From the NCBI GenBank assembly GCA_937951635.1, contig CALFBO010000056.1:1-39032 (forward strand): DNA of 39,032 nt, read 5' to 3'. This stretch comes from Candidatus Saccharimonadia bacterium (GTDB lineage Bacteria; Patescibacteriota; Saccharimonadia; Saccharimonadales; CALFBO01). The position numbers were made by a program, and so were the translations under genes. The notes below the pieces were generated by a model. That model had not been told where the DNA came from and did no database searches. It saw nothing but the letters and a program-made list of their open reading frames with translations. Positions 1,415 through 30,366 of the stretch are shown one piece after another. The stretch's first letter is position 1, and the number at the start of each line of letters is the position of its first letter.

Positions 1415-1467
1415 ACACCCTATTATACACTCGGTTGACGCACATGGCTTAATGCGAATTCATACTC

Positions 1468-1495
1468 TTGCTTTCTACCCTCAGCAAAATATTCT
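1468..1495 (+). promoter_or_regulatory. weak sigma70-like promoter candidate for the X-module array
   Basis: TTGCTT (1468-1473), 16-nt spacer, TATTCT (1490-1495). The predicted start falls at about 1501-1503, the first unit boundary of the tandem array. Both hexamers match consensus poorly. Confidence 0.25.
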
Positions 1496-1501
1496 AGCCT
1501 G

Positions 1502-2037
1502 GTTGTTCAGGGGCTTTAAGTTCAAAACAATAACTAGTATTTCTTTGTTTTTGGAGTGCCTGACGAGGCGCCGTGCTTTGTTTTTCAATGGAGCGTACTT
1601 AACAGCTAAAGAAAAACAAAACGTATCTTTTTAAACATGCCTGTATGGCCATAAAACTCGTTCTCTTCTTCGACATATCTAAAGATATGACTTAAGTCGA
1701 GTAACGAGTCTTCTGTCTCACCCAGATCACGATCAAAAAATGACACGTTTTGTATTCCTTTGGCTATAACAAGTACGTGTAATGAAAACTAAGTGCGGGA
1801 ACGAAGAAACCTGGCTGGAGTCCGGCTGTGCCGGTGTAGGCCTGATTGTTCAGGGGCTTTAAGTTCAAAACAATAACTAGTATTTCTTTGTTTTTGGAGT
1901 GCCTGACGAGGCGCCGTGCTTTGTTTTTCAATGGAGCGTACTAGCAAGTACGTGTAATGAAAACTAAGTGCGGGAACGAAGAAACCTGGCTGGAGTCCGG
2001 CTGTGCCGGTGTAGGCCTGGTTGTTCAGGGGCTTTAA
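1502..2037 (+). repeat. tandem array of a 175-nt structured non-coding module (X family): XA 1502-1844 (interrupted), XB 1845-2019, partial third head 2020-2037
   Basis: Direct comparison: 1502-1599 equals 1845-1942 except for the first base, and 1771-1844 equals 1946-2019 exactly. The 18-nt unit head recurs at 2020-2037. Nested helices are present. Wobble pairs are T:G/G:T on the + strand. Confidence 0.9.
1600..1770 (+). other. 171-nt insertion in the apical hairpin loop of X copy XA; carries a Y-family structured module (about 1616-1753)
   Basis: XB reads CGTACT-AGC-AAGTACG. XA reads CGTACT-[171 nt]-AAGTACG. The insert folds on itself: ACAAAACGT 1616-1624 / ACGTTTTGT 1745-1753, CTCGTT 1657-1662 / AACGAG 1703-1708, and hairpin CATATCT-AAA-GATATG at 1674-1689. 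Confidence 0.8.
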
Positions 2038-2050
2038 AAACAAAAAAATA

Positions 2051-2125
2051 TGGTATCCCCGGCTGGAATCGAACCAACATCTAATCCTTAGGAGGGACTC
2101 GTTCTATCCGTTGAACTACAGGGAC
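2051..2125 (-). tRNA. tRNA-Arg (anticodon CCU)
   Basis: The reverse complement folds as a 75-nt cloverleaf. Acceptor GUCCCUG/CGGGGAU (G1:U72 wobble), D arm GUUC-AACGGAUA-GAAC, anticodon arm AGUCC-CUCCUAA-GGAUU (anticodon CCU), 4-nt variable loop, T arm GUUGG-UUCGAUU-CCAGC, discriminator A, encoded CCA. Confidence 0.9.
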
Positions 2126-9680: not shown

Positions 9681-9861
9681 CTTCAAGACCCCAATCACAA
9701 AACTAAATCTGAACAGATAAGCTTTAAGTGTAGGTGCGTATAGCTTATCTGAGCTGTTCTTTGGTAGCCACAGCTGCTTATGAACAGATTGGGTGAGTTA
9801 GATATGTACCTGCCCCGAAGGTCTATATGACTGGGTTAGTTTTGTGATTAGGGTCTTCAAG
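9681..9861 (-). terminator. compound 3'-UTR hairpin closed by a 26-bp stem, immediately after the pilin stop codon
   Basis: CTTCAAGACCCCAATCACAAAACTAA (9681-9706) pairs with TTAGTTTTGTGATTAGGGTCTTCAAG (9836-9861), enclosing 129 nt. Inner helices: CAGATAAGCT/AGCTTATCTG, AGCTGT/ACAGCT, AATCTG/CAGATT. One C:A mismatch on + becomes G:U on the minus strand. The stem starts 2 nt after the stop at 9864. There is no clean U-tract. Confidence 0.5.
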
Positions 9862-9863
9862 CT

Positions 9864-10343
9864 CTAACCTTCTGCACAGTAAGTTCCGCCACCCTCTAGC
9901 ACGACGGCCACTGCAAAAGATCTAGTAGATGTACTGGACGCATCTATCCAGCCATCCGCACAACTTGCTGCAAATTTATAAAATATCGGTTCTTTGTCGC
10001 CGCTCTTAAATTTTACGGCTGCTTTTTCGGGGAGGGCAGCTCTATGTATGTAATAATCTTGCACAATGTCAGAACCTGCATAGCCGCCAGTGAGAACTTG
10101 TTCTTCTAATTGTTTGCCATTAGCTGGGGCCTCGCCCCCGCTATTCGTCTTGTAGCTCAAAGTAGCGGCAACCATTCTGCCAACAACCGAGCGTCTAGCC
10201 TCGTCACGCTCAGACTTTTGCAAAGACGGCAATGCCAAGAAGACTGCCAAGAATATGAACCCCGCTATGGCCAAAACTAAGACCACCTCGATGATAGTGA
10301 ATCCTTGTTTGTTTGAGTTTATTTTCACTTCAATCTTTTTCAT
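9864..10343 (-). CDS. type IV pilin (PilA-like), paralog 1
   Basis: MKKIEVKINSNKQG|FTIIEVVLVLAIAGFIFLAVFLALPSLQKS is a class III signal with E+5. A C-terminal Cys pair (SCADGW...GGGTYCAEG) fits a pilin D-region disulfide. Confidence 0.85.
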   Translation of the reverse strand: MKKIEVKINSNKQGFTIIEVVLVLAIAGFIFLAVFLALPSLQKSERDEARRSVVGRMVAATLSYKTNSGGEAPANGKQLEEQVLTGGYAGSDIVQDYYIHRAALPEKAAVKFKSGDKEPIFYKFAASCADGWIDASSTSTRSFAVAVVLEGGGTYCAEG

Positions 10344-10378: not shown

Positions 10379-10545
10379 TCTATAGACAAAACATTTTAGC
10401 TTGCGCCAATAAATTATTGATGATTGTGGTCCAAGAATCACGTTCTTCGAACGAGGCATATCTGTAGATATGGCGAGAGAGGAAACGTGGTTATTGGGCT
10501 GCAGGGGCGATAATTTGGCGCGAGTCAGAATGTTTTGTCTATAAA
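10379..10545 (+). ncRNA. candidate structured RNA/DNA element, Y family (stand-alone copy)
   Basis: Nested helices: TATAGACAAAACATT (10381-10395) / AATGTTTTGTCTATA (10529-10543); GCTTGCGCCAA / TTGGCGCGAG(T)C; ATTATTG/CGATAAT; CCAAGAATCACGTT (10431-10444) / AACGTGGTTATTGG (10484-10497); apical CATATCT-GTA-GATATG (10457-10472). About 5 T:G/G:T wobbles on + would be A:C on the minus strand. Homologous to 1616-1753. Confidence 0.5.
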
Positions 10546-10670: not shown

Positions 10671-11156
10671 CTAGCCTTCTGCGCAGTAAGTTCCACCACC
10701 CTCTAGGATGACAGCTACTGCAAATGTTCTTGAAGAACCACCGCTGGAATCAATCCAACCGCTAGTACAGTTTGCGTTTTTTGCATAGTATACAGCTTCT
10801 AGGTCACCACTAAGGTTGCCCCCAAAGGCACCGGCTGCAGCAGCGTTCGCAGGTACTGCACTCGTCCACATGTAGTACTTAGTTGGGAAGTCATCTTCCA
10901 CATAATTAGCATCTACGACGTTAGTTTGTACAACGCCCGCGTCATTTGGTACGTCGCCATTACTGTTAGTAATGTACGATGTAACGCCTGCTACGAGTCG
11001 TCCAACGTCTGAACGCCGCTCAGTATCTCGTTGTGACTTCTGCAGTTGAGGCAGCGCCAAGAAGACTACTAAGAAAATTAGACCAGCAATAGCCAAGACC
11101 AAGACAACCTCGATAATGGTGAAGCCGCTCTGTCGATTTTTAACTAGCTTGTTCAT
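10671..11156 (-). CDS. type IV pilin (PilA-like), paralog 2
   Basis: MNKLVKNRQSG|FTIIEVVLVLAIAGLIFLVVFLALPQLQKS. The C-terminus NCTSGW...FAVAVILEGGGTYCAEG is nearly identical to that of paralog 1. Confidence 0.85.
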   Translation of the reverse strand: MNKLVKNRQSGFTIIEVVLVLAIAGLIFLVVFLALPQLQKSQRDTERRSDVGRLVAGVTSYITNSNGDVPNDAGVVQTNVVDANYVEDDFPTKYYMWTSAVPANAAAAGAFGGNLSGDLEAVYYAKNANCTSGWIDSSGGSSRTFAVAVILEGGGTYCAEG

Positions 11157-11331
11157 ACTTTTATCTCTTTCTACCTTTCGTTTTACAACTTTAATAAGGC
11201 TTATGTTTATATAGTGAAATTGTACTGACCTAAGGCAATAAAAGCAAGCATTTATAGGTAATTATACCGGTAATGCTTAAACACTTTCCTTTATGGGACT
11301 AAGGACCTACTCTACAAAAGGCTCTAACTAC

Positions 11332-11845
11332 TTTTGGAGTTGCTGCAATTCAAAACACCTTTTCACACCATGAAGATGATTTTCCAAGAAACATTCTTAA
11401 ATTCCCCAAATTCTCAGTCCGGACTTCGCCGGGTGTAGGATCTAGAGCTAAAGCTATTAAAAGTTTGGCTCTGCCGGTGGAAGTCTTAGCTAGTCCAGAA
11501 GGTTTAAAAAAGGAAATTAATGAGTGGCTAGGCCCCTTAGGCTACTTTTCGGTCTGTCTGACGAGGAGCAAAAACTAGCCCGCAGTGGAGCGTACTACTG
11601 TACGTGTAATGAGGACTAGTTTTTAGTGACGAAGACAGCTAGGCTGAAGCTGGCTTCGCTGACCAGGGAGACTGCTATTCAAAAGAGTTGAAAAGAATGA
11701 GTTCTGAGCTGATTTTCAGAATATTTGATAAGGCCCTAGTGCTTGTTTTCTAGCGGAGTGTACTTAAACAGTACATGGAGTGAAAATAAGCGCTGGCAAC
11801 GCAGAAGAGCTAACCCTGCGAGCCTGGTTTCGCCAAGCGGAGGGG
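11332..11845 (+). repeat. array of three diverged X-family modules: X0 degenerate 11332-11440, X3 11551-11668, X4 11725-11845
   Basis: Blocks shared with XB: TGAYRAGG (11559-11566, 11726-11733); GGAG plus hairpin CGTAC-TACT-GTACG / TGTACT-TAAAC-AGTACA; TGKARTGA; ACGMAGA. The long helix is kept by different sequences: X3 CAAAAACTAG 11569-11578 / CTAGTTTTTAG 11616-11626, X4 CTAGTGCTTGTTTT / AAAATAAGCGCTGG. X0 keeps TTTTGGAGTTGCTG, CAAGAAAC and the tail AGTCCGGACTTCGCCGGGTGTAGG (11416-11439). Confidence 0.6.
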
Positions 11846-11887
11846 TTGTCTCTGGTTCAAATGTTTTGAAAACAGTTCAAGTTCAGA

Positions 11888-26672: not shown

Positions 26673-26817
26673 CCAATAAAAGAGAGGTCCCGACACCCCA
26701 GAGCTATGCTCAAGGGGTTGGCGTCCCATCTGCCGAAGGCTGGGAGGGGGATCACGAAGCATAAGCGAAGTCTAAGGGGGAGGAGTCACCTCCTCCTTAA
26801 TAGCGAGTGTTGTGAGC
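26673..26817 (+). repeat. Z element copy 1 (non-coding, ~145 nt), 3' of ychF
   Basis: Aligns with the reverse complement of 30231-30366. The core is CCCCAGAGCTATGCTCAAGGGGTTGGCGTCCCATCTGCCGAAGGCTGGG versus CCCCAGAGCTTTGCTCTAGGAGTTGGCGCCCCGTCTGCCGAAGGCCAGG. Flanking shared blocks are CCAATAA, AGGTC, AAGC, GAGTCAC, CTTAATA and TGAG. Confidence 0.7.
26776..26799 (+). terminator. GC-rich hairpin inside Z1; likely terminator shared by the convergent genes
   Basis: GGAGGAG-TCAC-CTCCTCC (26779-26796) followed by TTAAT on +. It sits between the convergent ychF (+) and the 26839-27717 gene (-). Confidence 0.5.
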
Positions 26818-30230: not shown

Positions 30231-30366
30231 CTCACTGCCTTCGTTATTAAGTAGGAAGTGACTCGTCCCCTGGTTTTGCTTACGCTCAAACACCCCCTGG
30301 CCTTCGGCAGACGGGGCGCCAACTCCTAGAGCAAAGCTCTGGGGAGCGAGACCTATTTCTTATTGG
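30231..30366 (-). repeat. Z element copy 2 (inverted relative to copy 1), 3' of the RodZ-like gene and upstream of the rpsF promoter
   Basis: See Z1. The reverse complement of this interval aligns with 26673-26817 over essentially its whole length. Confidence 0.7.

Follow-up and report, generated by a model that had tools for sequence, protein, structure and literature searches.

A Y-family hairpin repeat nested in the apical loop of a tandem structured element of a marine Saccharimonadia bacterium

Why should one of two nearly identical tandem units carry some 170 extra nucleotides at the tip of a hairpin, while its neighbour ends in a loop of four? The question is raised by a contig of 39,032 nucleotides (the window, by which we mean the whole stretch of DNA that was analysed) from a marine-metagenome Saccharimonadia (Patescibacteria), whose nucleoside-diphosphate kinase has its closest homologues at 72% identity, the named ones coming from Saccharimonas or Saccharimonadia. 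Nearly all genes in the window are carried by the minus strand and the plus-strand GC skew is negative throughout. On the minus strand the order is type IV pilus genes, a xerC-like gene, bacA, ndk, tRNA-Arg(CCT), the array of X units and a gene with a bPH_2 domain; the array begins immediately past the 3' end of the tRNA (2051-2125, minus strand). Two open reading frames cross it, one at 1452-1634 (plus strand, 60 aa) and one at 1789-2043 (minus strand, 84 aa, with a TTG start). Both were judged to be spurious, repeat-spanning frames, and no protein-family matches were found within the array region. Evidence from public runs was taken from Logan contigs and 31-mer unitigs. It comprises run X1 (ERR9287625), in which the genome has a depth of about 8.1-8.6, and run X2, a sister sample with the same strain, which has a depth of about 3-4x and contains 44% of the words of the region.

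The array is made of two tandem X units, XA (about 1533-1875) and XB (1876-2050), preceded by a partial unit (1497-1532, plus strand) that repeats the 3' strand of the closing stem P1 (GCCTGGTTGTTCAGGGGCTTTAAGTTC...); this P1 3'-strand segment is accordingly present three times, at 1497-1532, 1840-1875 and 2015-2050. The uninterrupted unit XB (1883-2050, plus strand) is predicted to fold into a three-way junction of helices P1, P2 and P3 (1985-2019), and its P2 ends in the apical loop AGCA (1943-1946) on the stem GCGUACU/AGUACGU, in place of which XA has about 170 nt. The 5' half of XA (1540-1599, plus strand), identical to 1883-1942, holds in the predicted fold the 5' strand of P1 (1540-1563), the junction CUGACGAGG (1560-1568) and the 5' arm of P2 ending at the tip stem GCGUACU. 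The 3' half (1771-1875, plus strand) continues with the 3' arm of P2, the junction ACGAAGA (1801-1807), the hairpin P3 (1810-1844) and the 3' strand of P1 (1846-1875). Between the two halves lies the insert (1600-1770), a palindromic repeat of the Y family of about 168-171 nt, whose better-folding strand is the minus strand.

The flanks are without any difference, 1503-1599 being equal to 1846-1942 and 1770-1844 to 1945-2019, and the two units differ at one hairpin tip and at a single junction SNP (1845 A versus 2020 G). The earlier note had held that they differ only by 171 nt in place of AGC. The location at the tip and the identical flanks stand, but the SNP has to be added, and the wording chosen is one of three equally parsimonious descriptions: 171 nt (1600-1770) for AGC, 170 nt for AG, or a 168-nt insertion (1600-1767) together with an A/G difference at 1769/1944. 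The joint placed by the read-alignment tool corresponds to 170 nt for AG, passing from 1942 to 1945 and skipping 2 letters, with 170 letters between. XA and XB are not convertible into each other by one clean insertion or deletion, and XB is not guaranteed to be the precisely empty twin for which it had been taken. The tetranucleotide TAAC occurs at both edges of the insert (1600-1603 and 1767-1770) and is absent from XB, as the note had observed; comparison of the insert edges with XB gave no clean target-site duplication, again in agreement with it, and to obtain a TA duplication one would have to assume two further changes. XA is predicted to fold with the tip stem and the rest of P2 retained and with the insert lengthening the stem as a closed hairpin, its ends pairing (1616-1624 with 1745-1753) in the minimum-free-energy structure, which bears out the view that the insertion point is a hairpin tip with the host fold left intact. 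Both junctions of the insert lie within single unitigs without mismatches (230 nt in run X1, 373 nt in run X2), so that they are not an artefact of assembly; the empty loop is spanned by a 62-nt unitig and the X-X junction by one of 61 nt. The filled/empty pair is real and non-random.

The two runs do not give the same picture of the array. The graph of run X1 contains one filled loop, one empty loop, one X-X junction (with the A variant) and one tRNA-proximal end (with the G variant), at depths that fit two X units per genome. The filled-loop unitig (window 1570-1799) has a depth of 4.9, against 8.1-8.6 for the genome, 8.5 for the empty junction and 10 for the X-X junction. The low value probably reflects under-representation of a strong palindrome, and the depth ratios show no heterogeneity, there being no matching excess of the empty junction. 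In run X2 the 373-nt unitig is cyclic with a period of 345: it leads from the X-X junction (1833-1875, matched without a mismatch) by way of the left flank into the insert and then again to 1775-1862, and the tRNA-proximal end in this run has A at 2020. Such a cyclic unitig would imply filled X units in tandem, and hence an array haplotype that may differ between the samples. Provided that the window gives the units in the correct order (filled before empty), the second unit would be filled in run X2 and empty in run X1, which is suggestive only. The difference between the samples could be due to gene conversion or to loss of the insert. One conversion tract from XA to XB, covering the loop and everything up to 2020, would account for both peculiarities of run X2; loss of the insert with one substitution, acting in the opposite direction, would also explain both differences between the runs.

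These data bear most directly on the history in which the filled state is ancestral, a filled X unit having been duplicated and XB having then lost its insert by imprecise excision or by conversion from an empty X copy, with AGC as the footprint and not an untouched target. We regard it as unlikely. The identity of XA and XB outside the loop and the junction SNP agrees with it, and so do the filled unit that follows the X-X junction in run X2 and the A at 2020 in that run, as expected right after unequal crossing-over of one filled unit. It depends, however, on the window order, which is not confirmable from 31-mer unitigs, and with about 3-4x depth and 44% of the words the missing empty junction in run X2 is weak evidence. 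The reverse event, conversion of XB by XA over the tract from the loop to 2020, fits equally well in one step, and no single deletion turns XA into XB.

The nature of the interrupted element can be read from its other copies. Two diverged X units, X3 (11536-11700, plus strand; core 11560-11635, 74.7 bits with model R1) and X4 (11712-11872, plus strand; core 11727-11805, 77.3 bits with the same model), occupy the gap between pilC and the pilin gene, which measures 730 nt here versus 79-123 nt in relatives. The gap between ndk and the bPH gene is likewise 766 nt long versus 223-246 nt in syntenic relatives, where only the tRNA is present. Neither X nor long hairpins were found in the loci of six relatives (about 84 kb), and by this distribution X is a lineage-specific repeat, not a fixed syntenic gene. 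At least two additional X-like copies are present elsewhere in the genome, on run contigs, one of them with an apical loop 1 nt longer. The core hairpin of P2, located in the window at 1903-1982, 11560-11635 and 11727-11805 (all plus strand), has counterparts beyond this genome, in a Wallbacteria MAG (L002, 156-232, minus strand), in a GC-rich contig (L019, 6835-6911, minus strand) and twice in a Patescibacteria-like rpsF-ssb-rpsR operon (L028, 4511-4588 and 3864-3938, both plus strand). Pattern scans of genomes and metagenomes otherwise returned mostly chance matches in coding sequence, L002, L019 and L028 being the only real ones, and scans of viral contigs with three patterns returned nothing convincing.

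Two further observations concern the same intergenic sites. The gap between pilC and the major pilin gene (11157-11887) also has a P3-like hairpin at about 11409-11440 (AGUCCGG...GCCGGGUGUAGG), a stretch matched by another contig of the genome. In one relative (L006, 11338-11880) a 544-nt gap before the bPH gene contains the tRNA and several GC-rich palindromes (e.g. CTCGCTTGCGCGAGA repeats) unrelated to X, Y or Z, so that the repeats gathered at this site seem to differ from lineage to lineage.

The conservation of X is one of structure. XB, X3 and X4 fold into the same three-way junction, in the order P1, CUGACGAGG, P2, ACGAAGA, P3, P1, and both P1 and P2 of X4 differ from those of XB through compensatory changes. 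Across six X sequences 88% of the cells are paired and compensatory changes occur in 12 of the 18 pairs, a signal equalled in none of 500 shuffles and not approached by any slid register. The core is recognised by CGAGG/ACGAAG, by the loops A/GA and GGA/GKA (the latter 3x3), by the stem GYGUAY with its G-U closure and by a variable loop; the G-U-closed tip stem, the 3x3 GGA/GKA loop, two pairs and the A/GA loop are invariant. P3 is missing from the L028 and L002 homologues. The apical loops (AGCA in XB, UACU in X3, UUAAACA in X4, and UCAUC, UGAGCG and CCGAC) are 4-7 nt long and no sequence is conserved among them, the apical loop being the most variable, and presumably a dispensable, part of X. 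Every copy is 4-22 kcal/mol more stable on the strand as oriented, XB having -66/-75 kcal/mol on the plus strand versus -47/-57 on the minus strand. On our reading of the five or six independent loci, the structured strand runs antisense to the neighbouring genes at each of them, and in the same loci X lies within about 25 nt of the stop codon of the upstream gene or of the tRNA end.

Comparison with Rfam, both at the gathering threshold and at permissive E-values, identified no family for X, Y, Z or the insert, whether in the window or at the homologous loci, the only weak matches being to plant miRNA hairpin models. The promoter scan recognised none for X, and the terminator scan was uninformative for it. 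A hammerhead has a core of CUGANGA / GAAA, an A15.1-U16.1 pair and three helices that surround the site of cleavage; X, with its CUGACGA ... GAA, was rejected as a candidate, position 15.1 being G in XB and X3, helix II opening with mismatches, P3 being absent in L028 and L002, and no Rfam hammerhead match appearing at E up to 10. A K-turn or box C/D reading of the apical module, tried by eye, is at odds with the strand register, and a TIGR array was rejected since the units are 175 nt long, identical and without spacers. X looks like a previously undescribed conserved structured element.

The insert, in turn, belongs to a family of its own. It folds far better than shuffled sequence on either strand (plus, z -5.9; minus, z -9.4), and reaches -67.4 kcal/mol on the minus strand versus -45.5 on the plus strand. 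Its apex is CAUAUCU..AGAUAUG and its subterminal motif ACAAAACG...CGUUUUGU. The ends pair as terminal inverted repeats, TATAG.../...CTATA, with ACAAAAC/GTTTTGT just inside, and the whole element is an imperfect palindrome. The stand-alone member Y (10381-10543, plus strand, 163 nt) has the plus strand as its stable strand (-82.9 kcal/mol versus -49.8 on the minus strand), and a TA duplication is possible at its ends. The homology of the insert to Y, proposed in the earlier note for 10379-10545, is real and covers 10381-10543, but the orientation is the opposite one: the minus strand of the insert aligns locally with the plus strand of Y with z 9.3 (none of 500 dinucleotide shuffles as high), the plus strand with z 3.3. 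Each of the two folds better on one strand because of G-U pairs, which number 8 on the better versus 1 on the other strand in the insert and 10 versus 3 in Y. Taken in matching orientation they share one hairpin, which covers the full length and has 51 pairs; in 16 of these both sides have changed and pairing is kept.

Y lies between two paralogous type IV pilin genes (9864-10343 and 10671-11156), downstream of a classic terminator (10649-10623, minus strand) that together with Y separates them. The C-terminal coding ends of these genes are 74% identical over 106 nt, and relatives have a single pilin gene here.

A search for further members yielded at least four more insert-like copies in run X1, 80-92% identical over 35-120 nt and present in both orientations, on contigs of 2154, 6497, 1639 and 719 nt whose depth of 7-8.6 is that of the genome; one further Y-like copy on the contigs of this run is 85% identical to Y over 164 nt. 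No resemblance to X was found in the flanks of the other insert-like copies. The nested arrangement is thus a single case: only one copy out of at least seven in the Y family occupies an X loop, and XA alone is filled among at least six X units. The evidence supports the insert being a copy of a dispersed multi-copy element, short (168-171 nt, 163 nt in Y) and non-coding, and not a local expansion. The other copies also bear on its limits. Two of them have GCTAT before the position equivalent to 1604, and those reaching the right end have GC after 1768, which suggests that the family stem may extend to GCTATAGC.../...GCTATAGC. Such an extended stem agrees with the right end in XA, GGCTATAAC; the left end, CTTAACAGC, has diverged, which is one reason why the junction is not cleanly readable.

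A second hairpin repeat of about 170 nt, Z (9688-9854, plus strand), has the size and architecture of Y and the insert and shares the subterminal ACAAAAC/GUUUUGU motif with the insert family, but as a relative of Y or the insert it was rejected, the sequence similarity not going beyond chance. The left end of Z has about 18 genomic copies (unitig depth 153 versus 8.5), with variable centres and conserved ends, and its G-U pairs are distributed 15 versus 4 between the strands. It is flanked by direct 7-bp repeats CTTCAAG (9681-9687 and 9855-9861), a candidate target-site duplication.

Another repeat of the window is a pair of 52-nt inverted arms (26696-26747 and 30293-30344), 85% complementary, which brackets the genes for EF-P, an S18-like protein, SSB and S6. 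Neither arm folds better than shuffled sequence.

Can the insert be regarded as mobile, and in what form? Of the possibilities that the earlier note had left side by side for a small mobile or excisable element, the MITE-like one is supported by the dispersed family, and the intron-like, excision and hairpin-targeting ones have so far found no support. A search of 1400-2140 against Rfam, at the gathering threshold and with E up to 10, detected no group I/II intron core, the fold being a single hairpin, and the better-folding strand of the insert is opposite to that of X. Preference for hairpin tips is not supported by the single X loop occupied among at least seven family copies and the single filled unit among at least six. 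The 39-kb window holds no transposase, reverse transcriptase, Y1 or TnpB gene; for the first two this had already been noticed.

The explanation that we favour, with moderate confidence, is the nested insertion of a MITE-like palindromic DNA element, which would have stayed because it struck the part that X can do without. A non-autonomous element of the Y family of about 165-170 bp, folding over its whole length into one hairpin, would have been inserted as DNA into the 4-nt apical loop of P2 of one tandem X unit, its orientation, reversed relative to Y, being a matter of chance. The insertion would merely lengthen P2, and would for this reason be tolerated and retained. The transposase that moved it would have acted in trans, from a gene at another place in the genome. 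The hairpin of the family may matter in the single-stranded state, either as RNA or as DNA during transposition, as suggested by the G-U pairs on one defined strand and by the compensatory changes between copies. What the family shows, the occurrence of only one nested case and the variability of the loop suggest that the insertion was a chance event that was tolerated, and the best strand of the insert, being opposite to that of X, argues against co-adaptation with an X transcript, against an intron and against a dedicated intervening sequence.

Several points count against the MITE-like reading: there is no clean target-site duplication, XA and XB are not related by one simple event, and an autonomous element or transposase with matching ends was not found within the 39 kb. 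With one nested case, tolerance of the loop is not separable from chance. Moreover, a full-length hairpin with compensatory changes exceeds what the inverted repeats bound by a transposase need, so that a role in RNA or in single strands may be primary.

Bacterial MITEs that fold into long hairpins include ERIC/IRU, the Yersinia YPAL (about 168 bp), the Neisseria Correia/NEMIS and the pneumococcal RUP/BOX elements. The likeness of the Y family to the ERIC/YPAL/Correia/RUP type is one of general features and not of compared sequences: such elements are 100-200 bp long, non-coding, with many intergenic copies in both orientations, near-palindromic throughout, with a strand-dependent RNA hairpin and without a transposase of their own. 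Unlike them, the present case has no TA or clean duplication at XA, no known parent insertion sequence, and copies whose compensatory changes keep the hairpin. For ERIC, YPAL and Correia elements an RNA role in mRNA stability or processing has been proposed. A literature search on MITEs and hairpin repeats of Saccharibacteria gave nothing relevant, such a repeat load not being described, in the papers covered, for a Saccharibacteria genome of about 1 Mb. A nested position has its own parallels. IS1397 and ISKpn1 insert into the loops of PU/REP sequences, and elements of the IS110 family into REP or attC sites, so that a mobile element in the tip of a repeat-family hairpin, nested repeats and filled/empty pairs are common to these systems and to XA/XB; those elements are autonomous and have a demonstrated target preference, whereas the insert is non-coding and is the only one, among at least seven copies, to be found in an X loop.

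Besides the ancestral filled state, other explanations were weighed. As improbable, in our opinion, as the ancestral filled state is the proposal that X is a widely distributed and hitherto undescribed structured RNA or single-strand element, with a GA-rich internal-loop module (GGA/GKA, A/GA, CGAGG/ACGAAG) and a place shortly downstream of genes, always in antisense, and that its dispensable loop can be colonised by Y and Z as RNA-level hairpins, which spread from one tandem unit to another by gene conversion. If it were true, X, Y and Z would provide a bacterial analogue of intervening sequences outside rRNA.

Less probable again is the movement of Y, Z and X as single-stranded DNA by means of a Y1 transposase (IS200/IS605 or REP-associated) encoded elsewhere, with the X loop as an exposed target. 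It would account for the strong strand asymmetry of pairing in all three repeat types, for an insertion in a single-stranded loop and for the lack of a target-site duplication, as in IS200/IS605 transposition. In X, Y and Z, however, it is the plus strand that is structured, and by its negative GC skew and the gene orientation this strand is the leading-strand template, not the fork-exposed strand used by IS608-type elements; this orientation is the opposite of the expected one. The entire element is moreover one hairpin instead of two small subterminal ones, the 7-bp direct repeats at the ends of Z do not fit, and neither Y1 nor TnpB is encoded in the window. Residence in the loop of a structured RNA, or insertion without target duplication, is a likeness to group I/II introns and IS200/IS605-type elements, from which the insert differs in having no intron core, no Y1, TnpB or reverse transcriptase gene in the window and a single full-length hairpin.

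We think it very improbable that the insert is an intervening sequence of the rRNA type, a stem-loop cut by RNase III from an X RNA whose halves are held together by P1 and P2, or else a spliced intron. The intervening sequences of 23S rRNA are found in helices 25 and 45 and are removed by RNase III. The geometry of XA is like theirs, an extended stem-loop replacing the terminal loop in some copies with the host fold intact; the structure of X is conserved on a defined strand, and in the X-sense strand the insert forms a closed structure of its own. Nevertheless, the strand of the family that is compensated by G-U pairs is opposite to the structured strand of X, which argues that the insert is not adapted to an X transcript. 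There is no group I/II core, the other copies of the family are outside X, and no promoter was recognised for X. The host also is not rRNA.

An assembly artefact, in which a hairpin repeat would have been joined chimerically to a tandem repeat that had collapsed, is hardly credible, even though short-k assemblies break here, the ndk contig of the same run stopping inside XB, and the filled-junction unitig has the reduced depth given above, since both junctions are found without mismatches in single unitigs of two runs and a lower depth is expected for a strong palindrome.

If, as we favour, a MITE-like hairpin landed by chance in a tolerant loop, the nested insertion is most likely ordinary, and what is more unusual is the host element X and the repeat load of a small genome. 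Few repeats are expected in the very small genomes of Patescibacteria and Saccharibacteria, and the 39 kb analysed here contain three structured repeat families and a nested insertion, whereas relatives at about 70% protein identity have none of these repeats at the same sites. The nested copy marks an interruptible part of X and can be read as a natural insertion-tolerance experiment on a structure conserved across phyla. Should X be a functional RNA, a ready-made test system would be at hand in the filled/empty pair and in a possible polymorphism between samples; if it is not, the case would be an ordinary one of repeats landing in repeats.
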